Shown: positions 9,172 to 28,054 of the stretch, one piece after another
Position numbering within the stretch: position 1 is the first letter of the stretch
Layout of the letters: each line of letters begins with the position of its first letter
Source: Pirellula staleyi DSM 6068
GTDB lineage: Bacteria > Planctomycetota > Planctomycetia > Pirellulales > Pirellulaceae
Assembly (NCBI GenBank): GCA_000025185.1
Contig: CP001848.1
Location: forward strand, 4,860,001 to 4,892,000
Direction of reading: 5' to 3'
Length of the DNA: 32,000 nt
Program-made: the position numbers and the translations under genes
Notes under the pieces: generated by a model
Databases searched by the model: none
Told to the model about the DNA's origin: nothing
The model's input: only the letters and a program-made list of their open reading frames with translations

Positions 9172-10236
9172 ATGACAACCACCTCGAAGTTGTATCGCAT
9201 CGCCGTCTATGGTGGAGATGGCATTGGGGCAGATGTCACGCGCGAGGCTTTGCGTCTGCTTAACGCAGTAGCGCAGCGTCATGCATTTCAACTCGTACTG
9301 ACGGAACTCGATTGGGGCATCGATCACTATCGACGAACTGGAGTCGTGGTCCCCGAAAACTTCCTCGAGATTCTGCGGCCTCACGATGCAATTTTGCTCG
9401 GCGCAGTCGGTTGGCCAGCAGAACTTCCCGACCATGCGACACTCGCCCCCCTCGTTCGCATTCGTCAGGCGTTTGATCAGTATGCGTGCGTTCGTCCCGC
9501 ATGGTTGCTCCCTGGTGTTCCCTGCGTTTTGACGGGGAAATCGGCGGGGGATATCGATTTGGTCGTGATCCGCGAAAATAGCGAAGGGGAATATGTCGAC
9601 CAAGGGGGCTGGCTCCATCGAGGGACCGATCGCGAGGTGGCGATTCAAACAGCGGTTCATTCGCGACGGGGGGTAGCGCGTATTTTGCGCTATGCTTTTG
9701 AGCTCGCGCGAAAGCGCAAACAGAAACTCACAATGGCGACGAAATCGAACGCGCAGCGCTATGCCTACGTGCTGTGGGATAACCTGCTCGACGAAATCGC
9801 GCCCGAGTATCCTGATGTCGCGAGCGAGCGGCAGCACTGCGACGCGCTGCTGATGAACCTGGTGCGCTGGCCCGAGCGATTCGATGTGATCGTGGCGTCG
9901 AACTTGTTTGGCGATCTGCTCACCGATCTAGCGGGACAACTTGCAGGGGGACTGGGCCTGGCTCCTTCCACCAATACCAATCCCGAGCGCAACTTTCCTT
10001 CGATGTTCGAACCGGTGCATGGGAGTGCGCCCGACATCGCTGGAAAAGGAATTGCCAATCCAACCGCTGCCATTCTCTCGGCGGCGATGATGCTAGAGCA
10101 TCTCGGCGAAGTCGCAGCGGCACGAATGATCGAGCAGTCGATCGCCTCGACACTTGCAGCAGGGCATCGTACTCGCGATTTGGGGGGAACACTCTCGACC
10201 ATCGAGTTCACTGATCGAGTGCTCGAGCATCTCTAA
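9172..10236 (+). CDS. isocitrate/isopropylmalate dehydrogenase-family enzyme (tartrate or D-malate dehydrogenase-like)
   Basis: Motifs: YRIAVYGGDGIGADVTREALRLL, LLGAVGWP, DLVVIRENSEGEY, and NLFGDLLTDLAGQLAGGLGLAPS...FEPVHGSAPDIAGKGIANPTAAILSAAMMLEHLG. These are classic beta-decarboxylating dehydrogenase signatures, and the N-terminal pattern resembles tartrate dehydrogenases. Confidence 0.88.
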   Translation: MTTTSKLYRIAVYGGDGIGADVTREALRLLNAVAQRHAFQLVLTELDWGIDHYRRTGVVVPENFLEILRPHDAILLGAVGWPAELPDHATLAPLVRIRQAFDQYACVRPAWLLPGVPCVLTGKSAGDIDLVVIRENSEGEYVDQGGWLHRGTDREVAIQTAVHSRRGVARILRYAFELARKRKQKLTMATKSNAQRYAYVLWDNLLDEIAPEYPDVASERQHCDALLMNLVRWPERFDVIVASNLFGDLLTDLAGQLAGGLGLAPSTNTNPERNFPSMFEPVHGSAPDIAGKGIANPTAAILSAAMMLEHLGEVAAARMIEQSIASTLAAGHRTRDLGGTLSTIEFTDRVLEHL

Positions 10237-12004: not shown

Positions 12005-13681
12005 CTAACGTCCCCCTCGACCGCCACCACGGCGGCCGCGGCCACCATGCTCGGGTCGGCTGCTGCGGGCTGCGATGTTCCCATCGACGATCGACCCCAC
12101 GGCATCTTCCCAGGTCGGGATTTTCTTATGCAGCGAAAGCTCTTCGCCATGTTCATCGCCGTCGTCATGGTCATCATGATCGAGATCATCACGATCGCGT
12201 GAAACTTCACTACGGCCTGCTTCACTCCGAACAGGCTCACCTCGGCCAGATTCACCTCGACCGCTCGGAGCGCGACGTGGTTCGGGCGATTCGCTACGTC
12301 CCCGGCGCGGCGAGCGACCGGCGTACGAAACGTCGTCCAAATCATCGTCGTCGTCTTCATCGTCGATGCTGCGGCTGGTGGCTGGACGAACTTCACGCGG
12401 TGGTGCGGCACCGGTGGTTTCGCGGTCGCGTCCCCCTCGTCGACGACGACGGCGGCGGCGGCGAACACCTTCGCGAGCTGGTTCTTCATCACGTGCACGA
12501 GCTTCACCAGCGATGGGCAATTCCGTGTCACTTCCATCGTCGACCGGTTCGGCATCTTCATCGATGAAATCGCGGCGAGCAAAGTCGCCCCGCGATTCAC
12601 CACGAACAGGCGCTGGTTCATCGCGGTCGCTAAATCCCCGTTGAGGAAGCACTTCGTCGAGTTCTTCATCCTCAAGCGGTGCGCGGCCTGGTGATGGAAT
12701 TGCATCGCTGACCGGGGCTTCGGCCCCTCCACGTCCACGGCGACCACGCCCACGGCGGCGGCGACGGCGTTTGCGACCCTCGCTCGAATCGTCGCTCGGT
12801 GTGGGAGCATCAGATCCAGCGAGAGGAGCATCGTCGATGCCGTACTCAATCACAGCGCCGGTGGCCACTTCCTCATCGTCATCGACGTAATCGAAGTCAC
12901 GCTTGTCGATATCGCGTTTATCAAGATCACGCTTCTCAAGATCACGGCGCTCGACGTCGCGGCGTTCCAGGTCTCGCTTCTCGAAATCTCGACGCTCGAC
13001 ATCACGTGGTGGACGTGGAGCGCGAGGGGCTTCGCTCGAAACGCGAGGAGCACTTTCAGCAGCAGGAGCTTCATCGCGCCGCACTCGGTCGCGTCCGCGA
13101 CCACGGCCCCGACGGCGTCCTCGAAAATCCTCTTGAAGGTTGGCAGGACCCGGAGCAGGGAACTCGCTGGTGTCCTCATCCCAAACCGACTTCGCAGACG
13201 CTGCTGCGGGCGCTGGCTGAACTGGGGCTGGTGGAGGTGGTGCAACGGGGTGGGATGGAGCCGGGCTAAACCCCGTCAGAGCTGGTGGTGCCTGCGGCGT
13301 CACTGGTGCCTGCTGCAGAGGCTGAGCAGCCAGCATGGCGGCCAAGGGCTCGGGGAGCGGAACAGGTTCCGGCGGAACTTCCAGCCCCAGCTGACCTGCT
13401 AATTGCGACCAGCTGCTGCGTTTGCCAGGAGGTGCGGTCGTGGTTGGCTTGGGCTTTGGTTTGGCGGGAGGAGGTGGAAGTGTCGACGCAATTCGCTGCT
13501 GCGAAACCACTTCGGGCACGTCAGCAACATTTTCAACAGGCACGCTGGCAGAGGGTTCAGCGGCAACAGGTTCGGCAGAAGGGGCCGAGGAAAGTTCGGG
13601 CTGGGTCTGCGAAGCAGGGGCAGCGAGGCCAAAGCTCTCTAGCAAAGAACGCCAGCGGTCAGGTTTTGACGGATCGGGCAT
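12005..13681 (-). CDS. hyper-charged, low-complexity (intrinsically disordered) protein with RD-pentapeptide repeats and an RGG-type tail
   Basis: This 558-aa ORF has a P/A-rich N-terminal half and eight RDxE[KR]-type pentapeptides. It contains poly-R/RG runs (RKRRRRRRGRGRRGRGG, RRRRRRRRGGRDRE) and acidic runs (DDEDDDDDLDD, DDLDHDDHDDGDEHGEE). It ends in GGRGRRGGGRGGR. The long open frame, maintained through repeats, supports coding. Confidence 0.7.
   Translation of the reverse strand: MPDPSKPDRWRSLLESFGLAAPASQTQPELSSAPSAEPVAAEPSASVPVENVADVPEVVSQQRIASTLPPPPAKPKPKPTTTAPPGKRSSWSQLAGQLGLEVPPEPVPLPEPLAAMLAAQPLQQAPVTPQAPPALTGFSPAPSHPVAPPPPAPVQPAPAAASAKSVWDEDTSEFPAPGPANLQEDFRGRRRGRGRGRDRVRRDEAPAAESAPRVSSEAPRAPRPPRDVERRDFEKRDLERRDVERRDLEKRDLDKRDIDKRDFDYVDDDEEVATGAVIEYGIDDAPLAGSDAPTPSDDSSEGRKRRRRRRGRGRRGRGGAEAPVSDAIPSPGRAPLEDEELDEVLPQRGFSDRDEPAPVRGESRGDFARRDFIDEDAEPVDDGSDTELPIAGEARARDEEPAREGVRRRRRRRRRGGRDRETTGAAPPREVRPATSRSIDDEDDDDDLDDVSYAGRSPRRGRSESPEPRRAPSGRGESGRGEPVRSEAGRSEVSRDRDDLDHDDHDDGDEHGEELSLHKKIPTWEDAVGSIVDGNIAARSSRPEHGGRGRRGGGRGGR
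12887..13006 (-). repeat. 15-nt periodic tandem repeat encoding 8 RDxxK/R pentapeptides
   Basis: The translation reads RDVER RDFEK RDLER RDVER RDLEK RDLDK RDIDK RDFDY. I checked the codon phase against the CDS frame. Confidence 0.85.
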
Positions 13682-14004: not shown

Positions 14005-15270
14005 ATGAATCGCTCGTCTGGCACCTCAGAAATCCTCCCTTTTTGCGAAACGGTGGAGATTTCGGGGCACATCATCGACAGTTTGCTCCTCCCCAAAGTG
14101 CTCGATCTGATCACTGCCGCCGGGGGTGCATTTCAGATCCGCGACATCACCGTGGGACAGGCTCGCTCCGACGCAAGTTTCGCAAGGATCGAGGTTTCAG
14201 CAGCCTCGAAAGAGCGTCTCGAGCAGATTCTGGCTGCCATCGCCGACCATGGCGCAACAGCCATCCATCAGCACGACGCACGCCTCGTTCCGGCTGATAT
14301 TGCAGCCGCATTTCCCGAGGGATTCTATGCCACCACGAATCAGCAAACGGAAATCCGTATCGCTGGAAAGTGGCTGAACGTCGACAAGCAGGAAATGGAC
14401 TGCGGAATCGTCGTCGCCCCCGACCTGCAATCCGCCGCATGCCGTGCCATGACAGAAATCAACATCGGTGACCTCGTGGTGGTTGGCCATGTGGGGGTGC
14501 GTGTCCATCCGGTTGAACGGAACGCTCGCAAGCATGGCTTTGAGTTCATGAACAGCCCCGTTTCGACAGAAAAACCCAAAGGGGTTGCGATCCGTCAGAT
14601 TGCCGAGGAACTCGTACGTGCCCGGCGCGAGCATGGCCAAACGCTTGTCGTCGGTGGGCCTGCCATCGTCCACACCGGAAGTGCCGAGCACCTCTCCAGC
14701 CTGATAAGACGAGGCTATGTCAACAAACTCTTTGCAGGCAATGCACTGGCAACTCATGATATCGAGCAAGCTTTGTTTGGCACGAGCCTGGGCGTAAGAC
14801 TCGACTGCGGCGATATTGTTGAAGCTGGCCACGAGCATCATTTAAGGTCCATCAACCGCATACGCCGCTGGGGAGGAATTAAGGCTGCTGTCGATGGCGG
14901 ATATCTTAAAAGCGGCATCATGTATGAATGTATTAAGAACAAAATTGAATACATTCTCGCGGGCAGCATTCGCGATGATGGGCCACTCCCTGAAGTGATC
15001 ACCGATACGCTGGAAGCACAGCAGGCCATGCGGCGTGGGATCGCTGGCGTTTCTTTTTGCTTAATGGTCGCCACTACACTCCACTCCATCGCCGTTGGCA
15101 ATCTACTACCGGCCTGGGTCAAAGTAGTTTGCGTCGACATCAATCCTTCGACAGTGATTAAGCTTGCCGATCGTGGATCGTTCCAAACCGTGGGACTCGT
15201 CACCGATGTGGAACCATTTTTCCGGGCATTAGTCGGTGAAATTGACCGAATCGAGAGGGAGACACCATGA
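14005..15270 (+). CDS. TIGR00300 / LOR-SDH-domain protein, putative archaeal-type ornithine cyclodeaminase (AgrE/ArgZ C-terminal-half-like)
   Basis: ATG 14005 is preceded by aaggag (13993-13998). The 421-aa ORF starts ...VEISGHIIDSLLLPKVLDLITAAGGAFQI, and its C-terminal half is Rossmann-like (LVVGGPAIVHTG...ILAGSIRDDGPLPEV). This matches my recollection of the TIGR00300 family. Confidence 0.72.
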   Translation: MNRSSGTSEILPFCETVEISGHIIDSLLLPKVLDLITAAGGAFQIRDITVGQARSDASFARIEVSAASKERLEQILAAIADHGATAIHQHDARLVPADIAAAFPEGFYATTNQQTEIRIAGKWLNVDKQEMDCGIVVAPDLQSAACRAMTEINIGDLVVVGHVGVRVHPVERNARKHGFEFMNSPVSTEKPKGVAIRQIAEELVRARREHGQTLVVGGPAIVHTGSAEHLSSLIRRGYVNKLFAGNALATHDIEQALFGTSLGVRLDCGDIVEAGHEHHLRSINRIRRWGGIKAAVDGGYLKSGIMYECIKNKIEYILAGSIRDDGPLPEVITDTLEAQQAMRRGIAGVSFCLMVATTLHSIAVGNLLPAWVKVVCVDINPSTVIKLADRGSFQTVGLVTDVEPFFRALVGEIDRIERETP

Positions 15271-16142: not shown

Positions 16143-16322
16143 TTCCCTGGACTAACTTCGTCCGGGAGGTCCCCCGCAGAGTGCCTAACGCGTACAATTC
16201 GGCCAGTTTCGTTTTCTGCCGAGACCGAAGGATCGGCTCGTTTGTTTTGCATGTCACTTGATTGTTCTGGCACGTCCAGCGCGACAAGTGGCATTGGCTT
16301 GTGCTCCTAGGAGGTGGTTCCG

Positions 16323-19157
16323 ATGCTCGGTCGCTCATTGTTTTGTTCAGTCACTGCGGCGATTCTGACTTTCTCGCTTGCAAGCAGTGCTCATGCTCGT
16401 GTGGAATCCGAGGCGATGAGTGGAGGCCGCATCAGCGTGGCCCGCATCTCGCTGGCGGCGGCTGACGTCGCTGGCCCTATCGACCCCATGCAAGTTCGTG
16501 TGGTCGACAACGACGGCCGAACCAGCTACCCGGCTGTGGCCGCTGGAACGCTCGGGAAATTTATCGGTCAGCTGCTGGGCGCCACCGAGGACCTTCCCCC
16601 CGGAACGCTCACCGTGACGTTTCTGTTTACGGGCGATCGACCTCTAGAAGTCACTCTTTACACCCCCTCGCCAATTCAGGTAACGATTGTTCCTCGACCG
16701 CCTCGCAACCCTCGCGAGTTTGATCGGCTTGTTGATCGCTGGTGGAAGGACTACCAAGCTCAAGCCAGGGCATCGGGTGAGCGTTCCGATCATCCACCCG
16801 TGGTGTATGACTACTTAGTCGCAATGCTCGCCCAGCGCTACGGTTTGCCGCTCCCCGATAAACAGCCACAAGCTGCCAGTGTGAGCCCGGGACAGCAATC
16901 GCTCGAGCTTTTGCTTGGCATGGAGCGTCTGAAGAGCGAAACCCTGAAGAACACGATGCTGGGGCGGGGCGATTTCACCGAACCAGCCGACATTCTTTTA
17001 CCGGAAGCTTTGCCGAGCGTGGCGCCACCCGTCCCTCCGGTTCCAGCCGATTTGAAGCTCGAAAAAATTGCATCGCACGTTCCCGAAGAGTGTTTTTATG
17101 TTCGCTTCGGCAAGTTCTCGAACTATCTGTGGCTCAACAAATTGCTGGCCGAATATGGGGGCGATATCAGCAGCATGGCGACGCTGCGAAGCTACACCCA
17201 GCCTTTGGGCGATCGCCTGCAAAAGCAACTTTCACTCGAGCAAAATCAACTTGCAGACTTGTTCGGCGACACGGTGATTTCGGATATCGCCATCATCGGC
17301 CGCGATACGTACATGAATGAAGGTGCCGCGATCGGCATCATGTTCGAAGCACGCGATAACGATGTCTTGAGCAACGATTTCTCGACCCAGCGCAAACGGA
17401 CACTTCAGAGAGAAAAAGCGGCCGGTTGTACTCTCGAAAAAGTCACCATCGCTGGTCGAGAGGTTTCTTTCCTTTCGACTCCTGATAACCGCATTCGATC
17501 CTTCTATGCGGTCGACGACAACTATCACCTCGTCACCACCTCGCGGGCCATCGTCGAGCGCTTCTTTGCAGCAGGCAAAGGGGACCGACCACTGGCCGCG
17601 ACCGAGGAATTTCGCTACGCCCGGACTCAAATGCCGCTATCGCGCGGCGACACCATCTTTGTCTACTTCAGTTCGCGATTCTTCGAAGAACTGCTCGGCC
17701 CCCAGTACCAAGTCGAACTCTACAGGCGTTTGCAGTCGGTCACCGACATGGAACTACTGCAACTGGCTCGCCTCGCGGCCGTGGGCGAAGGACTTCCTAC
17801 GGACGAAATGGAAGAACTGGTAGCTGCTGGTCTCTTGCCGCGTGGTTTTGGCCGCCGTCCCGATGGAAGCGGCCCCATCGTCACACCATCAGGAAGCATC
17901 GACTCGCGTCGTGGCGCACGTGGCTTTTTCCTGCCGATTCCAGACGTCGAAATCCGGTCGATCACCGCCTTGGAAGCCTCACGCATCGACGCCTTCTCGC
18001 GTGCCTACACTGCCCAGTGGAAACGGATGGACCCACTCATTGTGGCCATCAATCGCACCGCTCTCGACACGCCCGAAGAAGGGGGCCGAACGCGCGAACG
18101 CATCGTGATCGATGCCAATGTCACACCCCTCGATGAAACCAAATATGGCTCGCTGCTCTCGGTGCTTGGTCCAGCCACCAACGAAATGGTCACTCCGGCC
18201 GCTGGCGACGTAATCACGGCACAAGCATCGGTTCGCGGCGGACTTCTTTTGCCCAGCGTACCGCCTCACTACTTGTTCCTTGGCGTGCAAGATATGGTGC
18301 CGCTGTCCGACATTCGGCCGCAGGGGCTACTTCAAACGCTGCAGTTTTTGAAGACCGTGCCAGGCTACATCGGTGGCTGGCCCAAGCCAGGATTCCTCGA
18401 TGCTTTGCCGTTTAATCTCGGCGGCAGTCGACCCGATGCGTATGGTTTTTCGAAGTTGCCGTTTGGTCTCTGGCGTCGACAAGGGGCTGGATTCTCCGTG
18501 CTCTCCTTCGATCCACAATTGCTGGCCGATGTTACGCCACAGCTGCGCGTGGTCGAGTCCGAGACACCGGCACAAATTCGCTTGCACGTCGGAGACCTCA
18601 GTAGCGCCAAGTTCAGTGCCTGGGTGAGCCGGATGTACGAGCAACGTGCCGCTGAAGCATCGCGAGGCAACGTACACATGCTCCACCTGCTTCATCAGCA
18701 GATGAAGGTGCCGCTGGAAGATTCGCTTGCGGTCACCGAGCAATTGCTCGATGCCACACTAACCTGCCCGCTGGGTGGAAAGTATGAACTTGCGGCTGCT
18801 CCTTCGGGCGAGAAGTACTGGCAAAGTTCAGCCTGGAATCCCGACGTCGAAAAACGCGAGAAACAACCTTATCAAGCGCCGCTCCTCACTTGGTTTCGCG
18901 GTGTCGATGCCCATTTGATTCGTGATGAGTTCGGCATTTCGACGCACCTGGAACTCGACATGGTTCGCCAACCTGTCCCCGAAGATCAAAAGGTGAAAAT
19001 CCCCTCGTTCTTCGACCTGTTTAGTGGTGGTGGCCAGAAAGCAATGAAGCCCAAAAAGAAAGAAAACACCGAAGAACTTCCACCTCCACTTCCCCCCGTT
19101 CCCAAAGCCAGCACGCCGCAGATCGAACCTTCAGCTCCTGGAACGAAGGAATTTTAG
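16323..19157 (+). CDS. large secreted protein of unknown function
   Basis: ATG 16323 lies 8 nt after aggagg (16309-16314). The Sec signal is MLGRSLFCSVTAAILTFSLASSAHA. The 944-aa ORF has a K/P-rich C-terminal tail. No family was recognised. Confidence 0.85.
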   Translation: MLGRSLFCSVTAAILTFSLASSAHARVESEAMSGGRISVARISLAAADVAGPIDPMQVRVVDNDGRTSYPAVAAGTLGKFIGQLLGATEDLPPGTLTVTFLFTGDRPLEVTLYTPSPIQVTIVPRPPRNPREFDRLVDRWWKDYQAQARASGERSDHPPVVYDYLVAMLAQRYGLPLPDKQPQAASVSPGQQSLELLLGMERLKSETLKNTMLGRGDFTEPADILLPEALPSVAPPVPPVPADLKLEKIASHVPEECFYVRFGKFSNYLWLNKLLAEYGGDISSMATLRSYTQPLGDRLQKQLSLEQNQLADLFGDTVISDIAIIGRDTYMNEGAAIGIMFEARDNDVLSNDFSTQRKRTLQREKAAGCTLEKVTIAGREVSFLSTPDNRIRSFYAVDDNYHLVTTSRAIVERFFAAGKGDRPLAATEEFRYARTQMPLSRGDTIFVYFSSRFFEELLGPQYQVELYRRLQSVTDMELLQLARLAAVGEGLPTDEMEELVAAGLLPRGFGRRPDGSGPIVTPSGSIDSRRGARGFFLPIPDVEIRSITALEASRIDAFSRAYTAQWKRMDPLIVAINRTALDTPEEGGRTRERIVIDANVTPLDETKYGSLLSVLGPATNEMVTPAAGDVITAQASVRGGLLLPSVPPHYLFLGVQDMVPLSDIRPQGLLQTLQFLKTVPGYIGGWPKPGFLDALPFNLGGSRPDAYGFSKLPFGLWRRQGAGFSVLSFDPQLLADVTPQLRVVESETPAQIRLHVGDLSSAKFSAWVSRMYEQRAAEASRGNVHMLHLLHQQMKVPLEDSLAVTEQLLDATLTCPLGGKYELAAAPSGEKYWQSSAWNPDVEKREKQPYQAPLLTWFRGVDAHLIRDEFGISTHLELDMVRQPVPEDQKVKIPSFFDLFSGGGQKAMKPKKKENTEELPPPLPPVPKASTPQIEPSAPGTKEF

Positions 19158-19193
19158 TCGCCTCACGAAGATCGGGTGACATCAAGAAACGAA

Positions 19194-19240
19194 AAAGCCG
19201 TCTGAGAGATTCGTGAGAACCTTCAGCCGGCTTTGTTTTG
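19194..19240. terminator. intrinsic terminator between convergent genes (probably bidirectional)
   Basis: The stem pairs aaagccgtctga (19194-19205) with tcagccggcttt (19223-19234) with one mismatch. It is followed by gttttg on the + strand. It is preceded by gaaaaag, which gives a T-run on the - strand. Confidence 0.7.
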
Positions 19241-19296
19241 GCTAGTAGTTAAAACGTGGTGCGATAACGGGTGTCATCGCGTCATGTTTGTTTGCA

Positions 19297-20567
19297 ACTT
19301 AAGCAAACAATTCTTTGATGACCTTGCCACCGTTGGCGATCTTCATCGGACGGCCGCTCTTGCTCGTGAACGTCGTTTCCAGCGAGATCCCCAGCGCCTT
19401 GCAGACCGTTGCCATCACATCTTGCGACGTGTATGGCTCCGTCTCTACGCTTGTCCCATCTGCATTGGTCGAGCCCACGCCAAGGCCACCCTTCATGCCG
19501 GCACCACCCATCACCACGCTCCACGAACGAGCCCAGTGATCGCGGCCTGCACCGCCATTAATACGAGGGGTGCGGCTGAACTCGCCCATCCAAATGATCG
19601 CTGTATCTTCCAGCAAACCACGCTGTTCGAGGTCTTCCACCAGGGCGCTCATCGCGCGGTCCAGAACGGGAAGCTTCTGGTCGGCCAGCGTCGTGAAGAT
19701 GTTCGCGTGGTTGTCCCAACCGCCGAAATCAACTTCCACAAACGGTACACCAGCTTCCACCAAACGGCGGGCCATTAAGCACCCGCGGCCAAAGCCGTCG
19801 TTCCCGTAACGCTCTTGGACTTCCTTCGGTTCCTTCATCACTTTGAACGCTTCCATCTGACTGCTCGTCATCAGGTTCAAAGTCTTCTTCAGGATCTTCT
19901 GGTGGTCTTCCGAAGCGCTACCACGATTCTGCTTGATGAAGTTGTTTTCGATCATGTCCAAAGCAGCCATACGCTGCATCAGACGATCTTCTTTCAAACC
20001 CATCTCGAGGTTGCGAACCTGGCCGTTGCTGTTCACCACAAACGGCGACCAAGCCATGCCGAGGAAGCCAGGACCAACGCTGCCACCACCCACCGATACG
20101 AACGGAGGAATCTCGAGGTCGGCCCGTTGATCGATCAGTTCGTGCGACAGAACAGCACCGTAGCTCGGGTGTTCGATGTTCGGGTTCGGCACGTAGCCGG
20201 TGTGCATGTAGTAGCGGCCACGCATGTGATCCGCTTCACGCGTGCTCATCGAACGCACGATCGACAGCTTGTCCATCACCTTGGCGGTCATCGGCATGTG
20301 TTCGCTGATCTGCACGTCACCAGCGGTGCTGATCGGGCGAAACTGGCCACCGGTCGAAGCGCCGGGCTTCAGATCCCAAATGTCCATCGTGCTCGGACCG
20401 CCGCTCATCCACAGCAGAATCGCCGACTTCTTGTTCTTCTTCAGATCGGCAGCGTGAGCCATCAGGCTGTTGCCAAGCGTCAAGGCTGGAATCGTCATCG
20501 CGGACGCACCAGCCATATGACTCAGAAAATGACGGCGATTCATCCCTTCGGGAAGCAACAGACTCAT
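19297..20567. repeat. 1.27-kb dispersed repeat, copy A (coextensive with the DUF1501 CDS)
   Basis: It aligns to 24282-25552 at a constant offset of 4985 with 18 mismatches and no indels, judged by eye. Confidence 0.95.
19299..20567 (-). CDS. DUF1501 domain protein (sulfatase-like fold) with twin-arginine signal, copy 1
   Basis: The Tat-type N-terminus is [31 protein letters not shown]. Motifs [20 protein letters not shown] and GRDHWARSW are typical of DUF1501. It lies immediately downstream of a DUF1549/DUF1553 gene, the canonical pairing. Confidence 0.92.
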
Positions 20568-20725
20568 GACAATGTCCCCAAGATCTCAACGGACGCGTGA
20601 ACTTACAGATAACGATTGGATCGAAAACTATTCACTTGAGCCACTGCTGGAACTCTTGGCTATTTCAGCGGGAACTTTGCAGAAGTTCCTGAAGAGTCTT
20701 GCGTGGCCTCTTAATCTCTAAACGC

Positions 20726-23161
20726 TCAATGATCTAAAATGAACTCATTGGAATTCAAAAGTGCCCACCAAATATCTTCAACAGCAGCGGCCGGATTGGG
20801 GCCTGCTGAGGCAAGCATCTTTTCAGCTGCTTCGAGCTCGCGTTTGCTTGGACGTCGCGACAAGGCTGCGAGGAACAAATGCTCGACCTTCTCTTGCGGC
20901 GACATTTTGCTTTCGACAACACTTCGCAGCAGACCTTCATCGCGGCTGCTCACGGCACGCTGCATCAGTTCGCCATTCATCATCGCCAGCGACTGGCTCA
21001 TGCTGCCGTTGAAATTGGTTTCCTCTTCTGCGTCGTCGGTCGCCATGTTCCGCTGGAACTGAGCGAGCCAATCGCGCCGAGCAAGTTCAACCTGCGATTG
21101 ACCACCGCTCGACTTCCGCAACTGTGCGGCAATCAGGAGCGACTGGTAAACCTCTTCAGCCTGCATTTGGCGGGCGTAGTAGTGACTGAAGAGTGGAACC
21201 GTTCCAGCCTCGGGAGCATCGACGAGGTTACTGGCGGTGATCTTACTTGACCGCTGGAACGGATCACTGAGGGTGATCCAGCGAATCAGCATTTTCAAAT
21301 CGTGACCACTACGAATGAACTCGTCAGAGAGTCGCTCGAGTAGTTCCGGATGCGTTCCGCTGGCAGCGGCGATGATCTCGGCCTGCTCGGCTTCACTATC
21401 AGCGAGGCGAATGTTCGCGGGATCGAGACTGTTGGGCAGAGCTGCTTGGGGCTGCGACTTGGCGACTGGCTTGTCGGCCAGCGGCACCATGTCGTCGATC
21501 GGGCGGGTGAATCCGTAGCCAAAGAAATGGCTCCAGACACGATTGACCGTGGCTCGCGAGAATTGCTTGCTGGTGACAACTAATCGAGCGAGTTCAGCAC
21601 GACGACGAACCTCGCTGACGAGACCACTGGGGTCGACTTTCGAACCATCGAGGTATTCGGGATAGGCTGCCTTGAGCAAACCGTTGGGAGCCTGGTAGTA
21701 GACTTCGGCTTCGTCGGTGTTGCCACTGCTGCTCACGAAATCGGCATCGACAACGGCTGGCCTGCCCCCGATTTTCGTCAAGCGTGCCTGACGGAAGAAG
21801 GCGTTCATCGACCAATATTGCTGCTGTGTGAAATCGTGTGCTGGGTGATGATGGCACTGCGCACATTGCAGCTGATGCCCGAGAAATACTCGCGAAACTC
21901 GCGCGGTGGCCAGTGTTCCATCACCATCGAGGCTGTCGAGCATGAAGTTCACGGCACCATTGAACTTTTCGCTCCCTGGCTCGCCGGTTCCTTCGGCTGT
22001 AATCAATTCAAAGGCAATCTTGTCGTACGATTTGTTTTTGGCAATCGCATCGCGCAGGTAGAGTTCAAGCCCCTCACGACTCGCAGGACCTTCATCGTCG
22101 CTACCGGTGCTGCGACCAATCAGTGCGGTGGCAAAAATCGTCGCCCAGTAGCGAGAGTATTCATCGCGATACTCCTCAGCCGCGAGCAGACGATCGACTA
22201 GCGCGGCCGACTTGTTTGGCGACTTATCGGCCAGGTGCGTTTCGAGTTCTTTCACGGTCGGAATGCGGCCGAGCAGACGCAGAAAGACGCGCCGGCAGTA
22301 TTCAGCTTCCGTGGCCGTAGGGGAAGGTTCGACTCGATTGGCTTTCCAGGCAGCATCCACGGTTGTGTTGACGAACGAAATCACTTCACCAAGCGACGAT
22401 GGAGAAGCAGCAGGGGGTGGAACGAAGGTTGGATTCTCGAGCGTTTCACTCTGCTGAGCAGGATTGGCCGAAGCAATTTGTGGCGGGCCGTTATCAACCG
22501 TGCCGGGATTCATTCGACCGGGATTCGACGAGCGATCAGGACCGTTTGACGAATTTTTTGTGGACGAATCGCTGGGGGAGTTTGCTAGTTGTGGCTGATT
22601 GGTGCTGCGCTGCGGACGCGACTTGTCGCCCGACTTGACGACTGCAGACTTCTCGCCACCGAGTTTTTCCGTACCCGACTTGTTACCACCACCTGCCACC
22701 GAATTTTCCGAGGGCTGCGATAGTCCCCACCAGGCCACGCCAACAGCAACCAACGCAATAGCTGCCGAAAGGGTGAGAACTGGGACGTAGCTGGTTTTTC
22801 GCGATCGAACGCGAGTCGTGCGGATGGCCGGGGCCACTTGATCAGGCGCGGCGATAGCCTCGGGCTGCGACACCGTGCTGGGAGCGATCGCCATAGCGGG
22901 TACGCTGACCGGCGGTGCCACGAGTGGCGGAGCGATGGGCTGTCCACTCGCACTGAGCGAAGCAGCCACCATGCTGGACATACCAGCCGCGCTTGTCAGG
23001 CCAGCCGCGTTTGTCAGGCCAGCTGAACTGCTCGACTTGGGCGATGCGCCCCGCGCAGCCCACGCCTGGAGAATCCGCGCGGTGAGATCCGGCGGAGTTC
23101 GGTCTGCCAGGATTTCCTCCAGGCAGGCATCCAGGATGGGGTTGTCACGGTCCGGCGTCAT
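20726..23161 (-). CDS. membrane-anchored DUF1549/DUF1553 protein with an anti-sigma-like cytoplasmic N-terminus
   Basis: In this 811-aa ORF, the N-terminal approx. 40 aa (MTPDRDNPILDACLEEILADRTPPDLTARILQAWAA) resemble anti-sigma factor N-domains. A single TM helix follows (YVPVLTLSAAIALVAVGVAWWGL), then a long S/P/N/G-rich linker. The DUF1549-type motif is EAEYCRRVFLRLLGRIPTVKELE. The DUF1553-type motifs are FLGHQLQCAQCHHHP...YWSMNAFF and the C-terminal WWALLNSNEFILDH. Confidence 0.88.
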   Translation of the reverse strand: MTPDRDNPILDACLEEILADRTPPDLTARILQAWAARGASPKSSSSAGLTNAAGLTSAAGMSSMVAASLSASGQPIAPPLVAPPVSVPAMAIAPSTVSQPEAIAAPDQVAPAIRTTRVRSRKTSYVPVLTLSAAIALVAVGVAWWGLSQPSENSVAGGGNKSGTEKLGGEKSAVVKSGDKSRPQRSTNQPQLANSPSDSSTKNSSNGPDRSSNPGRMNPGTVDNGPPQIASANPAQQSETLENPTFVPPPAASPSSLGEVISFVNTTVDAAWKANRVEPSPTATEAEYCRRVFLRLLGRIPTVKELETHLADKSPNKSAALVDRLLAAEEYRDEYSRYWATIFATALIGRSTGSDDEGPASREGLELYLRDAIAKNKSYDKIAFELITAEGTGEPGSEKFNGAVNFMLDSLDGDGTLATARVSRVFLGHQLQCAQCHHHPAHDFTQQQYWSMNAFFRQARLTKIGGRPAVVDADFVSSSGNTDEAEVYYQAPNGLLKAAYPEYLDGSKVDPSGLVSEVRRRAELARLVVTSKQFSRATVNRVWSHFFGYGFTRPIDDMVPLADKPVAKSQPQAALPNSLDPANIRLADSEAEQAEIIAAASGTHPELLERLSDEFIRSGHDLKMLIRWITLSDPFQRSSKITASNLVDAPEAGTVPLFSHYYARQMQAEEVYQSLLIAAQLRKSSGGQSQVELARRDWLAQFQRNMATDDAEEETNFNGSMSQSLAMMNGELMQRAVSSRDEGLLRSVVESKMSPQEKVEHLFLAALSRRPSKRELEAAEKMLASAGPNPAAAVEDIWWALLNSNEFILDH
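22983..23018 (-). repeat. 18-bp tandem repeat (2 full copies plus a partial) in the low-complexity region
   Basis: ccagccgcgcttgtcagg (22983-23000) is followed by ccagccgcgtttgtcagg (23001-23018) and then ccagctg. It encodes the AGLTNAAGLTSAAG stretch. Confidence 0.8.
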
Positions 23162-23253
23162 GGCTCAAAGTTCTCGCTTTTGCTTTTTAGTTGCTTTGCA
23201 GTGAAACACCGCAATGAAACATCATTGTGGATTTCACGATTCAGGTTGATTTA

Positions 23254-23847
23254 TCAGCTCGAGCGACGTTTCGAACTAGCAGAGTTTTCGGTCGCTGCCG
23301 TCTCTGCTGGTCCCGGTCGCTCGTCACTCGTTAATTTATTCTCGACACACGTTTTAAGCTGCTGTTTGGCACGCTGCATTAAATTTTTTGCGCCATGCTC
23401 GGTGATTTCGAGGGCCGTCGCGATTTCATCTCGCGAACGATCACTTCGAAATCGCAACTCCAGAGCCATGCGAGCCCTCTCTGTCAGCCCCTTCAGGCAT
23501 TCCCGCAGAGCATCGAGAGCCGCCTCACCCGAGTCGTTCCCGGCCCAAGTGGTCCAGGTTCGATCGATCTCCTCCACCGCCTCCATTACCACCACTTTGC
23601 CAGCTCGGCGCTGATGGGAAATGAACAGGTTGAGGGCAATCTTCCGCAGGTAGGCTGCCGTCGCAGCAGCATTGATCTCTTGAAACGGACGCTGCAAAAC
23701 ATGCAGGAACGTCTCTTGCGTCAAATCCTCCGCGAGGGCCGACTCGCATCCCAAGGCTCGCAAATAGCGCCAAATCCCCGCCTGATACGTCTTGATCAGA
23801 TCGGCAGGGTTGAAGCTGGTCGCGGATGGCTCGGGGGGAGTCGTCAT
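23254..23847 (-). CDS. ECF-type sigma-70 family RNA polymerase sigma factor
   Basis: The 197-aa ORF has a region 2 (IWRYLRALGCESALAEDLTQETFLHVL) and a region 4 HTH (LRFRSDRSRDEIATALEITEHGAKNLMQRAKQQLKTC). It lies 92 nt upstream of the anti-sigma-like gene. Confidence 0.92.
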   Translation of the reverse strand: MTTPPEPSATSFNPADLIKTYQAGIWRYLRALGCESALAEDLTQETFLHVLQRPFQEINAAATAAYLRKIALNLFISHQRRAGKVVVMEAVEEIDRTWTTWAGNDSGEAALDALRECLKGLTERARMALELRFRSDRSRDEIATALEITEHGAKNLMQRAKQQLKTCVENKLTSDERPGPAETAATENSASSKRRSS

Positions 23848-23917
23848 GACCCAATTACTAAGCGAAGGCCGCCGTTAGATGTACTCAGATGCCGAAAGAA
23901 AAACTGCGCAAAGCATT

Positions 23918-23944
23918 ATTCGCAAAAAACTTAGCTGCGATTCC
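23918..23944 (-). promoter_or_regulatory. candidate ECF-type promoter (GGAAT-N17-CGAAT) upstream of the sigma factor gene
   Basis: The minus strand reads aaaaatGGAATcgcagctaagttttttgCGAATaat about 70-95 nt upstream of ATG 23847. It resembles the GGAAC-N16/17-CGT/TCGA architecture of autoregulated ECF promoters. This is a motif match only. Confidence 0.2.
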
Positions 23945-24133
23945 ATTTTTCGTGATTTCGAGCCCCAATCGACACGAAATCGATCGATTTTCAGAAGAAT
24001 GGCCCACCACGCAACCATTCACCGCTAGATCTATCGTAAATCGAGGCAGACTGCTGCACTACTCGGCGATTTTGGAATGCAAACGTTCGGGAGCAGGCCC
24101 GGAACCGGACCTCAGCCTCCCTGCGCAAAGAAA

Positions 24134-24171
24134 ATCGCGGCCAAGATGACGTTTTGCATCTCGGCCGCGAT
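24134..24171 (-). terminator. intrinsic terminator downstream of the second DUF1553-DUF1501 pair
   Basis: A 9-bp GC-rich stem, atcgcggcc (24134-24142) and ggccgcgat (24163-24171), is followed on the minus strand by tttctttgcgc. The + strand also has ttggttttt after it. Confidence 0.65.
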
Positions 24172-24281
24172 CGTTGGTTTTTAGCTCTGGGCGATGATCT
24201 ACCTTAGGTAGTCTGCCTCACTCAATCGGGCTGATCAGCTCGACTCAGCAGGGCATCACCGCCGTCCATCTCGAAACCGCT

Positions 24282-25552
24282 ACTTAAGCAAACAATTCTT
24301 TGATGACCTTGCCGCCATTGGCGATCTTCATCGGGCGGCCGCTCTTGCTCGTGAACGTCGTTTCCAGCGAGATCCCCAGCGCCTTGCAGACCGTTGCCAT
24401 CACATCTTGCGATGTGTAAGGCTCCGTCTCCACGCTTGTCCCATCTGCATTGGTCGAGCCCACGCCAAGGCCACCCTTCATACCGGCACCACCCATCACC
24501 ACGCTCCACGAACGAGCCCAGTGATCGCGGCCTGCACCGCCGTTAATACGAGGAGTGCGGCTGAACTCGCCCATCCAAATGATCGCTGTATCTTCCAGCA
24601 AACCACGCTGTTCGAGGTCTTCCACCAGGGCGCTCATCGCGCGGTCCAGAACGGGAAGCTTCTGGTCGGCCAGCGTCGTGAAGATGTTCGCGTGGTTGTC
24701 CCAACCGCCGAAGTCAACTTCCACAAACGGTACACCAGCTTCCACCAAACGGCGGGCCATCAAGCACCCGCGCCCAAAGCCGTCGTTCCCGTAACGCTCT
24801 TGGACTTCCTTCGGTTCCTTCATCACTTTGAACGCTTCCATCTGACTGCTCGTCATCAGGTTCAAAGTCTTCTTCAGGATCTTCTGGTGGTCTTCCGAAG
24901 CGCTACCACGATTCTGCTTGATGAAGTTGTTTTCGATCATGTCCAAAGCAGCCATACGCTGCATCAGACGATCTTCCTTCAAACCCATCTCGAGGTTGCG
25001 AACCTGGCCGTTGCTGTTCACCACAAACGGCGACCAGGCCATGCCGAGGAAGCCAGGACCAACGCTGCCACCACCCACCGATACGAACGGAGGAATCTCG
25101 AGGTCGGCCCGTTGATCGATCAGTTCGTGCGACAGAACAGCACCGTAGCTCGGGTGTTCGATGTTCGGGTTCGGCACGTAGCCGGTGTGCATGTAGTAGC
25201 GGCCACGCATGTGATCCGCTTCACGCGTGCTCATCGAACGCACGATCGAAAGCTTGTCCATCACCTTGGCGGTCATCGGCATGTGTTCGCTGATCTGCAC
25301 GTCACCAGCCGTGCTGATCGGGCGGAACTGGCCACCGGTCGAAGCGCCGGGCTTCAGATCCCAAATGTCCATCGTGCTCGGGCCGCCGCTCATCCACAGC
25401 AGAATCGCCGACTTCTTGTTCTTCTTCAGATCGGCAGCGTGAGCCATCAGGCTGTTGCCAAGCGTCAAGGCTGGAATCGTCATCGCGGACGCACCAGCCA
25501 TATGACTCAGAAAATGACGGCGATTCATCCCTTCGGGAAGCAACAGACTCAT
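24282..25552. repeat. 1.27-kb dispersed repeat, copy B (coextensive with the DUF1501 CDS)
   Basis: See copy A. The flanks become unrelated immediately outside the start codon and 2 nt beyond the stop codon. Confidence 0.95.
24284..25552 (-). CDS. DUF1501 domain protein with twin-arginine signal, copy 2 (protein identical to copy 1)
   Basis: From ATG 25552 ([15 protein letters not shown]...) the 422-aa product is identical to that of 19299-20567. The ORF-track extension to 25858 overlaps the upstream gene and is not protein-like. Confidence 0.92.
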
Positions 25553-25688
25553 AAGAAGACTCCGGTAATTCTGGTGGCAGTCGCCGGTAAAGTGACAGCT
25601 GCCTTGGATACTTATTGACTTGAAACTTGTTAGACGTAGTTGACTTGTTTGTCGATGCCGAGCCCCTTTGCAGAGCTCTTCACACCGC

Positions 25689-27443
25689 TTAGTGCTGCAG
25701 GATGAACTCGTTGGTGTTGAGCACCACCCAGAACAGATCTTGAAGTGCAGCGGCTGTATCCCCCTGACGCCAGGTGAGGATTTGATTAGCTGCACGCAGT
25801 TCGGTGTCCGTTGGATTTCGAGCAAGAGCCGCTTGGAACAGATACTCGATCTTCGCACCCGGCTTAAGATTGCTGGTGGCGATGGTCGACAGGAAGCTTC
25901 CCTTATCGAGCTTCGTGGCGTCTTTGATCAGATCGCCATTGAACATCATCAAAGCTTGGGGAATTGTGCCGTTGAAGGTTGTCGATTCGTCACCTTCGTC
26001 GGTACCGAAAGCGATCGTGAACTGACGCATCCATTCGGCTTTGATCTTCTCTTGGTCTTCGTAGTTGCCACGGGTCTTGTGCGCCTGCGTTGCTACGAGA
26101 AGCGATTCATACAGCTGTTCTGCCTGCATCTGACGCAGGTAGAAGTGAGTGAACTTAGGAGTTTCGCCCATCAGCGGATCGTCGGATTTGTTCTTCGAGG
26201 TCACCACGCTGCTCAGCGAATAGGCTTCCGACAGCGTGATCCAGCGGATCAGTTCCTTGAGATCGAAGCTGTTTTGACGAACTTGCTGGCCGAGATAGTC
26301 GAGCAGCACGGGATGCGTCGGGGCATTGTGCGGGCCGAGATCGTCGATTGGCTTGGTGAAACCATAGCCCAGGAAGTGCCCCCACATGCGGTTGGCAATC
26401 GTCTTATCCATGAACTCCGACTTGATGATCAGCTTGGCCAACTCGGTGCGGCGATCGTTGTCTTCGAGATAGCCACTCTTGCTGATCTCGCTGCCATCGA
26501 CGAACACAGGGAAGGCACTCGAGAGAATGCCGTTGCGGAGTTCGTAGTAAAGGATCGCTTCATTAGGATCAGCGCCGGCACCTTCGCCCGCGAAATCTTG
26601 GTTCATCAGCTTGGCGCCAGCGATGTCGCGAGTGCCCGGGACGAATTCGCGAAGTGCACGCGTTTGACGGAAAAAGGCGTTGAATTCCCAGAATTTCTGC
26701 TGTTTCCATTCGTTGAACGGATGGTTGTGGCACTGGGTGCATTGAATCTGCAGCCCCAGGAAGTTCTTGGCCGTCATGGCAGTGGCTTGAGCAGCGTTTT
26801 CGTCGAGCTTCATCACCAAGTAGTTGGTGGCGCCGTTGAAACCTTCACCACCTGGAGCAGTCGAGCCAGTAGCCGAAACAAGCTCATACACCATGCGGTC
26901 GTAAGGCTTGTTGCGAGCAAACGAATCGCGGAGGAATTTCTGCATCCCCGCGCGGCTGATCAGTGTGTCGTCTTCGAGACCACCGTTGCGACCAATCAGA
27001 ATGTTGGTCCAAATCGTGGTCCAGTTGCGGGCGTAATCTTCGGTGTAGGACTCGTCGTAGAGCAGCTTCGAAACCAGCTTCAGTTTCTTGTCGGTTTCGC
27101 GGCTGGCGAGAAAATCGCGGAGTTCTTGGACCGAGGGAATCCGGCCGAGGATGTCGAGGTAGACACGTCGGCACCACTCGCCATCGGTGGCAGGTGGCGA
27201 AGGAGTGAGCTGGTTATCGGTCCAGACTTGCCGGATCTGTTCGTTGATGAACTTCACCTGAGGCATGCCGTAGTCAGGAACAACCGGCCCCGTGGCCGAT
27301 GGTTTGGCGGGCGTTGTCGAGGTGGTTGCCTCTTGCCCCAGCAAAACGCTGGTTGGGGCGGAGAGTAGCAAGGCACATCCCGCCACGAACGTGGCGATAG
27401 GTGTGCGAATCCAGTGGGCGAGAGAAGTTGTCATCTTGGTCAT
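25689..27443 (-). CDS. secreted DUF1549/DUF1553 protein (no anti-sigma domain)
   Basis: The Sec-type signal is ...[26 protein letters not shown]. The DUF1549 motif is [24 protein letters not shown]. The DUF1553 motifs are [16 protein letters not shown]...FWEFNAFF and the C-terminal [14 protein letters not shown]. The start is ambiguous: ATG 27443 was chosen, with TTG 27452 and ATG 27434 as alternatives. Confidence 0.88.
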
Positions 27444-28054
27444 CCTGATCAACTAGCTACCTGACAAGCGTGCTCGACAAGGGACTTACAACAAAGCACG
27501 CTGGCGGTCGTGATGGTGGCCGCACAGAGTGCTCGGTATTTGATGTGTTGGTTATCCGACCAGCCAGCGTTACTAGCAGTAAACTCAGAGTATTTTCGGC
27601 AGCAGGAAACGAACGAATGTCGCTCCCAGCCAACCGAAGTAGAGAAGTCCATCGCTATCTGTAACCTGAAACGTACGTTGCGCTCGGTTGTACTCGCGAA
27701 AGCCCGAATATTTGCCAGCTACTACCGAAAACCGGTACTGCATGGATGCCGCGTGCGACGCTTGCCGCAGGAAGTCCATGGAGAGCCTCGAGAACTTCGC
27801 GCGAGTCGTCCTCAATTGCATCGATAACCGAAAACTTATTTGACGACGTAGCTCAAGAGATTGCAAGCACTTGGAGCAAATTTCACCCTCCCAGGAGGTG
27901 CGTACTTCTGCTGCCGCCTGGAGGGGCAAACGTCGCGGCAAAAAAAGATTTTTTCTTCTTTTCCTGACTACCACCCACAACGCTACTTGTTGATCCCGAA
28001 GTCAGCGGGTGGCATTTGTTCGATTTTGATACAATTGTTGCGAAATTGAACATC

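Follow-up and report, generated by a model that had tools for sequence, protein, structure and literature searches.

A total of 26 prokaryotic genes have been catalogued as showing long-lasting concerted evolution (PMC6053082). The catalogue of Wang and Chen (2018) lists psbA, psbD, amoCAB, hao, etfAB, mtr and others, often subunits obliged to match their partners in a complex, and it contains no planctomycete gene and no DUF1501 gene (PMC6053082). The tufA/tufB pair, known from Salmonella, E. coli and many phyla, consists of two complete copies of a gene under strong constraint, placed in different contexts, and across species each copy groups with the other copy of its own genome (PMC6053082). 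Modules that associate a DUF1501 gene with a PSCyt/PSD1 gene are abundant, conserved and of unknown function (Kamneva et al. 2012, PMC3542564), and Planctomycetes and Verrucomicrobia have many paralogous modules per genome (Kamneva et al. 2012; Studholme et al. 2004). Here, we analyze two DUF1501 genes of Pirellula staleyi DSM 6068 that share with the tuf genes this arrangement of full-length, strongly constrained copies in different contexts. They lie within a window of 32,000 nt (the whole stretch of DNA analyzed; GCA_000025185.1, contig CP001848.1, positions 4,860,001 to 4,892,000 of the forward strand). Both are on the minus strand, and we name them D1 (copy 2 of an earlier note made from the letters of this DNA) and D2 (copy 1 of that note). 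We conclude that D1 and D2 are probably paralogues in concerted evolution by gene conversion, acting on a strongly constrained protein.

Two Genes for One Protein

Both genes match DUF1501 (PF07394, E = 1.3e-105) over profile positions 2 to 390 of 390. Their product has a twin-arginine N-terminus (MNRRHFL; RRHF at residues 11–14), and each gene lies 136–158 nt downstream of a gene coding for a PSCyt2 plus PSD1 protein. The 422-aa translations are the same, and the two protein records (ADB18406.1 and ADB18409.1) correspond to the single entry WP_012912666.1. Direct alignment confirmed the constant offset of 4985 nt and the absence of any indel reported in the earlier note. It also recovered exactly the 18 mismatches, over 1269 nt, that had been counted there. 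All 18 fall at third codon positions of the minus-strand frame and are synonymous; under a uniform model, such a placement has a probability of (1/3)^18 = 2.6e-9. By the Nei–Gojobori method, Sd = 18 and Nd = 0, which gives a synonymous divergence (dS) of 0.066 and a non-synonymous divergence (dN) of 0.

The likeness ends, as had been noticed, at the first base 5′ of the ATG and 2 nt 3′ of the stop codon. Outside these bounds, identity is about 25% (22–35% over the measured intervals), which is the random level, and the intergenic flanks of the two genes score no higher than shuffled sequences (P = 0.23 and 0.29). Blastn of 18700–21000 against 23685–25985 returned a single gene-covering high-scoring segment pair (HSP) of 1279 nt at 98.4% identity. 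A second HSP, at 57% identity, covers the 3′ ends of the two partner genes. Thus, the co-duplication of flanks that is expected of a plain recent segmental duplication is not seen at D1/D2. We also considered a mobile element or cassette and rejected it, since the D1/D2 borders have neither direct or inverted repeats nor a target-site duplication.

The earlier note had also drawn attention to a concentration of differences at the 3′ end. Nine of the 18 differences do lie in the last 271 nt (binomial P = 0.007, for an interval chosen post hoc), but a scan statistic with permutation does not single this region out (P = 0.22). At the other end, the frame of D1 stays open upstream to a GTG at 25858, forming a 524-aa open reading frame (ORF; 24284–25858, minus strand) that overlaps the 3′ end of the 587-aa partner gene. 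This extension is probably untranslated, because the homology with D2 and all the orthologues begin at the ATG at 25552.

Strong Purifying Selection and Saturated Orthologues

The DUF1501 orthogroup is 71–88% identical in amino acids across Pirellulaceae and is under unusually strong purifying selection, as the earlier note had supposed. Indeed, ω (dN/dS) between orthologues is 0.04–0.09 among the nearer relatives and rises to at most 0.15 in the most remote ones, and 30 of the 31 variable sites among six P. staleyi-like sequences are synonymous. All 31 are third positions, and the one non-synonymous change is E252D. At such ω values, 1.6–2.9 non-synonymous differences would be expected between D1 and D2, and the probability of finding none is 0.05–0.2. 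Hence, the absence of non-synonymous change, which had been taken as telling, is unremarkable.

The synonymous sites are more instructive. Between the P. staleyi gene and its closest orthologues (94% to 84% amino acid identity), dS is 1.0–1.5, that is, saturated, against 0.066 between the paralogues. Purifying selection alone as the cause of the near-identity of D1 and D2 is thereby ruled out. The synonymous near-identity of the copies therefore reflects a recent common ancestry of the two sequences.

The Second Copy in Related Genomes

We recovered about 165 related loci for comparison (numbered with the prefix L); the locus of each DUF1501 copy was assigned from its upstream partner type and from the sigma gene. 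In the usual layout, an ABC transporter gene (not always included), the orthologue of the 587-aa partner (P587), a DUF1501 gene, a sigma factor gene of the extracytoplasmic function (ECF) type and a second PSCyt2/PSD1 gene follow one another, and the P587-DUF1501-sigma synteny is kept in about 150 related loci. In P. staleyi, this second, sigma-linked partner is an 811-aa protein (P811). Among the representative genomes of GTDB and the metagenomes of the Joint Genome Institute (JGI), no relative exceeds 88% amino acid identity, and a search of 5.8 billion proteins added only a 94% identical protein on a 1.3-kb contig and a 65% identical P811 orthologue on a 3.7-kb contig.

Immediately downstream of the sigma-linked partner, a second copy occurs in P. 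staleyi and in at least four other Pirellulaceae lineages (L164, OZ247499.1, L041, L125, L021 and apparently L167); both copies are complete in only three genomes (P. staleyi, L164 and OZ247499.1), the others being partial. On L164, a JGI contig with both copies, these differ at 51 nt and 12 aa, and their homology runs from −17, at the ribosome-binding site (RBS), to 1 nt after the stop codon. OZ247499.1 is a complete 7.8-Mb chromosome where 3.26 Mb separates the two modules; here 52 nt and 4 aa distinguish the copies, which are homologous from −14 to +77, terminator hairpin included. The L041 contig ends 150 nt into D2 and, from −79 to +150, shows one mismatch in 230 nt against its own D1. 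L125 and L021 are short contigs with D2 only. L167 comes from a Pirellula relative whose sigma factor is 88%, and whose P811 is 63–65%, identical to those of P. staleyi. This contig carries the last 39 nt of a DUF1501 gene, the sigma gene and the P811 gene and then, 200 nt after the latter, an ATG that opens the peptide MNLEIPGG, which fits the N-terminal motif M[NS]LxxPxG of the orthogroup.

In loci lacking D2, the P811-like gene is followed by MATE-like, kinase, hydrolase or other genes, and only L012 and L091 have a DUF1501 gene at this place, 27% identical. We examined the idea that a divergent, ancestral DUF1501 gene stood behind the sigma-linked partner and was later overwritten, and found no support for it, since the usual downstream families there are MATE-like proteins, Ser/Thr kinases and others, and not DUF1501.

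Some observations on these loci stand apart. The 79-nt leader of the DUF1501 gene is the same at both L041 loci (9827–9905 and 14228–14306) and is conserved in L125 (about 2370–2452). It contains a hairpin with apparently compensatory changes (CGAACGCAgttGCGTTTA versus GGGCGCGttCGCGCCC), and may be a structured leader or a processing site. Many relatives (such as L006, L008, L017, L024, L049, L077–L082) have P587-DUF1501 without the downstream sigma gene or second partner, and some of these loci could be deletions produced by recombination between D1 and D2 as direct repeats, which would remove the sigma gene, the second partner and one copy. L005 and L029, from one metagenome-assembled genome (DASRJP01, SMAG_U10139), are two complete P587-DUF1501-sigma-P811-like clusters whose DUF1501 genes are only about 87% identical in nucleotides; a mixed bin is the more likely origin, rather than a true duplication.

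Copies Cluster by Genome

When orthologous loci are compared, the syntenic copies of P. staleyi, L164 and OZ247499.1 group by genome and not by locus, as do those of L041 in part. In the three genomes with complete pairs, the two copies are mutual nearest neighbors, with 96–98.6% nucleotide identity against at most 83% to any other genome, and the P811-linked copies of different genomes do not group together. The paralogue dS, 0.066 in P. staleyi, is 0.14 and 0.18 in the other two. Together with the saturated orthologue dS, this clustering supports the proposal of the earlier note that gene conversion limited to the coding sequence (CDS), or precise replacement, combined with purifying selection, shaped the pair.

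L041 and L125 are informative about the age of the second locus. Their sigma-linked partners are orthologous (71% identity, mutual best hits) and both have D2, yet L041 D2 matches L041 D1 and not L125 D2, and dS between L125 and L041 D1 is 0.79. This species pair and that of P. staleyi and L167, which apparently share D2 too, suggest that the second locus predates the similarity of the copies. Moreover, the OZ247499.1 pair is a mosaic: codons 240–289 hold 19 of its 47 third-position differences (permutation P < 0.002). The same scan was not significant for the L164 pair (P = 0.20).

At the strain level, both junction types are covered by a set of four metagenome contigs that come from different samples and match the window at about 99% identity (L001 and L165, P587-D1-sigma-P811; L002, a DUF1501 gene followed by sigma; L003, P811-D2 and downstream DNA). 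Among the six P. staleyi-like sequences, the distance between paralogues (18 differences) is about that between the orthologues of different strains (13–17). Only two D1/D2 differences are fixed, both within 130 nt of the 3′ end, and seven polymorphisms are common to the two loci.

A Model of Concerted Evolution and the Points Against It

D2 stands behind an ECF-sigma-linked, membrane-anchored PSCyt2/PSD1 gene, and the conserved D1 behind a soluble one. We propose that non-reciprocal gene conversion, through homologous recombination, repeatedly overwrites one copy with the other. Conversion would run only within the CDS and any RBS, leader or terminator that is still shared. Identity would stop at the gene bounds because the flanks are non-homologous, which would confine conversion to the CDS, and only synonymous differences would have accumulated since the last homogenization because purifying selection removes non-synonymous changes. 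This last event would lie at a dS of about 0.066, approximately the divergence among P. staleyi-like strains. The two copies would place the DUF1501 protein in two differently regulated transcription units, and the same protein, exported by the twin-arginine translocation (Tat) pathway and presumably of sulfatase/alkaline-phosphatase fold, would work with both partners.

Several observations weigh against this model. The conversion-tract scan within the P. staleyi pair found no significant tract (P = 0.22). The first 170 nt of the gene, on the 5′ side, have no D1/D2 difference, so the 5′ end is not more diverged and the simple edge-effect model of conversion is not matched. The polymorphisms common to both loci are suggestive only as a sign of conversion, because short-read contigs can be chimeras of the paralogues. 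Outside P. staleyi, 59 scored loci, and likewise L168 and L169, have sigma-P811-like genes without a second high-identity DUF1501 gene, and the evidence for D2 in L167 and L041 consists of 23 nt and 230 nt at contig ends. On a neighbor-joining tree of D1, D2 is present in 7 of 54 taxa, which parsimony explains by six changes from a D2-negative root; several independent gains are therefore cheaper than one old gain followed by many losses.

Competing Histories

This parsimony count bears on the strongest competitor, repeated recent duplication, according to which a copy of D1 was newly placed behind the sigma-linked partner in each lineage, and the small dS dates that event. Parsimony on the D1 tree favors about five to six gains from a D2-negative ancestor, most relatives are without D2, the segment shared in L041 is almost undiverged over its 79-nt upstream spacer as well, like a young duplication, and neither P. 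staleyi nor L164 has a significant tract mosaic. Against this history, at least five independent insertions at one position would be required, each of a nearly gene-exact segment: the extra flank is 0/2, 17/1, 14/77 and 79/? nt (upstream/downstream), where the neighboring spacers measure 136–436 nt, and the borders carry no target-site duplication, repeat or mobile-element signature. D2 is also apparently common to species pairs that are far more diverged than the copies, and the OZ247499.1 mosaic is incompatible with a single event. Of the two points that the earlier note raised against a plain duplication, the missing flanking DNA is confirmed, but the missing non-synonymous change is unremarkable at this ω. 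We regard repeated duplication as rather unlikely. A mixed history, with few gains each followed by conversion, is quite possible.

The more specific claim that Pirellulaceae acquired D2 in five or more independent recruitments, each nearly gene-exact and each to one and the same place behind the sigma-linked, anti-sigma-like partner, appears to us distinctly improbable. If true, it would imply an unrecognized recurrent mechanism or selective pressure. Candidate causes would then be recombination that starts from the conserved 3′ ends shared by the partner genes, or a sensor protein that strictly needs co-expression with exactly the DUF1501 enzyme that it monitors. Such recruitment would also offer the first clue to function in this large, functionally uncharacterized family.

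A further history, ectopic replacement, supposes that one copy was overwritten by a DUF1501 allele imported from another P. staleyi strain through homologous recombination, that is, by conversion in trans; the 18 differences would then be polymorphisms between strains. The synonymous difference per site (pS) between the paralogues, 0.063, equals the between-strain divergence at the gene and its flanking genes (0.02–0.06), and 13 of the 18 differences are private to one copy of the window, the four metagenome sequences all carrying the base of the other copy (counting L165 too, 10 stay singletons). An excess of synonymous strain diversity in DUF1501 over its flanks, which would have been a sign of conversion, was not found (pS of 0.046–0.056 against 0.02–0.06). 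However, replacement leaves unexplained why the copies were similar enough to recombine, as well as the recurrence of the pattern in unrelated lineages, and it is a variant of conversion between the copies rather than an alternative to it. As a separate explanation, it seems to us highly improbable.

Finally, an artefact of assembly or annotation, in which a single real gene was entered at two places or a repeat was collapsed or chimeric, is very unlikely: repeats of about 1.3 kb at 98.6% identity are difficult for short-read assemblers and several metagenome contigs (L002, L166) break exactly at the repeat edges, but the P. staleyi genome is finished (8-kb Sanger clones, 454, Illumina polishing and primer walking, with an error rate below 1 in 100,000; PMC3035237), the 18 differences tell the copies apart, each junction is independently spanned by contigs from other samples, and a like architecture exists on one JGI contig (L164) and in the complete chromosome OZ247499.1.

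The ends of the short-read contigs are themselves worth describing. L002 begins at the A of the ATG, L166 comprises the CDS with 36 and 26 nt of flank, and L167 starts 42 nt within one copy and ends 23 nt into the following one. Contigs that end within about 30–40 nt of the CDS bounds are what a CDS-bounded repeat would be expected to give in those organisms too.

Organization of the Locus

On the minus strand, the order is the P587 gene, a 136-nt spacer (25553–25688), D1, a hairpin, the ECF sigma gene, the P811 gene, a 158-nt spacer and D2 (Table 1). P587 has an N-terminal hydrophobic segment resembling a signal peptide and a CxxCH motif (QCTQCH), and its orthologues are 56–83% identical across Pirellulaceae. 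P811 evolves fast, with 35–65% identity to its positional orthologues. It carries about 260 additional N-terminal residues, in which a short cytoplasmic segment, one hydrophobic helix (about residues 125–147) and a low-complexity linker were recognized by eye. Residues 1–263 have no Pfam match, and a search relaxed to E ≤ 1 gave no anti-sigma Pfam domain. The layout resembles that of an anti-sigma factor. The two partners are homologous but diverged, as the earlier note had judged: they are 40% identical over 578 aa, which is indeed less than half.

The sigma gene product also matches the NCBIfam sigma70-ECF superfamily above cut-off. The hairpin that follows D1 has a comparable counterpart after D1 in L167 (about 75–125). 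It suggests a division of the locus into two transcription units, P587-D1 and sigma-P811-D2. The final 25 nt or so of the spacer between P811 and D2 are closer to the equivalent sequence of L167 than to the D1 spacer of P. staleyi.

Table 1. Features of the Pirellula staleyi DUF1501 locus (window coordinates).
Feature	Position	Strand	Basis and remarks
D2, DUF1501 gene (copy 1)	19299..20567	-	422 aa; lineage-sporadic copy, downstream of the sigma-linked 811-aa partner
D1, DUF1501 gene (copy 2)	24284..25552	-	422 aa; widely conserved copy, downstream of the 587-aa partner; Pfam PF07394
P587, 587-aa PSCyt2/PSD1 (DUF1549/DUF1553) partner of D1	25689..27452	-	Pfam
P811, 811-aa PSCyt2/PSD1 partner of D2	20726..23161	-	Pfam domains at residues 264-459 and 601-696
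ECF-type sigma-70 factor gene, between D1 and the P811 gene	23254..23847	-	Pfam Sigma70_r2, r4, r4_2
Strong intrinsic-terminator-like hairpin, 16-bp stem and T-tract	24133..24172	-	Terminator scan; 112 nt downstream of D1
Spacer between the P811 gene and D2, 158 nt	20568..20725	-	Unrelated to the 136-nt D1 spacer (shuffle P = 0.29)
Hairpin with 8-bp stem across the D2 stop codon	19288..19310	.	Terminator scan, + strand; TTGTTTGC-AACTTAA-GCAAACAA

The hairpin across the D2 stop codon is formed by one arm that belongs to the last codons of D2 and another that belongs to locus-specific downstream DNA, and it is absent at D1. It might act as a terminator for D2 or for a convergent gene, a 947-aa ORF (16314–19157, plus strand) that matches no Pfam family and for which none of the related loci has a counterpart at the corresponding place. 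Elsewhere in the window, a 558-aa ORF (12005–13681, minus strand) codes for a highly charged, low-complexity protein with poly-Arg/Gly tracts and RRDxEKRD-type repeats; it has no Pfam match, and its repeats account for the GC-rich direct repeats of the window. The Rfam search of the window gave no RNA family.

One DUF1501 Protein, Two Partners

The AlphaFold2 model of the DUF1501 protein is of moderate quality (pLDDT 64, pTM 0.72). Its Foldseek matches in the PDB (E ≤ 0.001) are almost all sulfatases and are weak (E around 1e-4, TM-score 0.3–0.35). Further, equally weak matches are proteins of the alkaline-phosphatase superfamily, namely LtaS/LtaP, YejM and a colistin-resistance enzyme domain. 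A sequence search of the PDB found no relative.

Most relatives have one DUF1501 gene between the two partners and, where there are two, they are kept the same; the DUF1501 protein therefore probably cooperates with both partners, the soluble one as well as the membrane-anchored, sigma-linked one. The layout with a lone DUF1501 gene in this place is common (about 60 related loci) and looks ancestral, and it agrees with the suggestion of the earlier note that one DUF1501 protein would serve two different partners. If the terminator after D1 separates two transcription units, D2 would be expressed along with the ECF sigma factor and the putative anti-sigma-like partner. The pairing of one protein with two very different partners would imply a physical or functional coupling that tolerates divergence of the partner and not of the DUF1501 protein. 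A model suggested by this pairing is that the sigma-linked partner acts together with the same DUF1501 enzyme or senses it. Such a model would matter beyond this locus, since few gene families of unknown function have expanded as much in Planctomycetes and Verrucomicrobia as those of the DUF1501 and PSCyt/PSD1 modules.

Comparison with Known Systems

Like the modules already described in these phyla, the locus combines a twin-arginine DUF1501 protein with a PSCyt2/PSD1 protein that has a cytochrome-c-like CxxCH motif. It differs from them on two points. The paralogous modules described up to now are mutually diverged, whereas here two diverged partners (40% identity) have a single DUF1501 sequence in common, and one of these partners is ECF-sigma-linked and membrane-anchored.

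With the genes listed by Wang and Chen, the pair shares syntenic orthology and paralogues that, within a species, are closer to each other than to their orthologues, synonymous sites included. That catalogue required at least five species, whereas here three genomes have complete pairs and two to three have partial ones.

The likeness to tufA/tufB extends to the differences between copies, which affect about 1% of sites, are scattered and are nearly always synonymous (12 of 1185 nt in Salmonella and 18 of 1269 nt here). On the other hand, the tuf duplication is nearly universal in the affected clades, whereas D2 is sporadic, in 7 of the 54 sampled lineages; this variable presence among relatives could help to study how such pairs arise and vanish. 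RecA-dependent conversion has been shown experimentally for tuf, whereas we infer conversion for the DUF1501 pair. The tuf genes of Salmonella are 762 kb apart and inverted, whereas the DUF1501 copies are 5 kb apart and in direct orientation. Moreover, no function is known for DUF1501, and its two copies have different partner genes. In conclusion, the D1/D2 pair is probably a new and well-delimited case of an evolutionary process already known, in a phylum and a gene family that are little studied, and not a system of a new kind; it would add a planctomycete example to concerted evolution of the tuf type.

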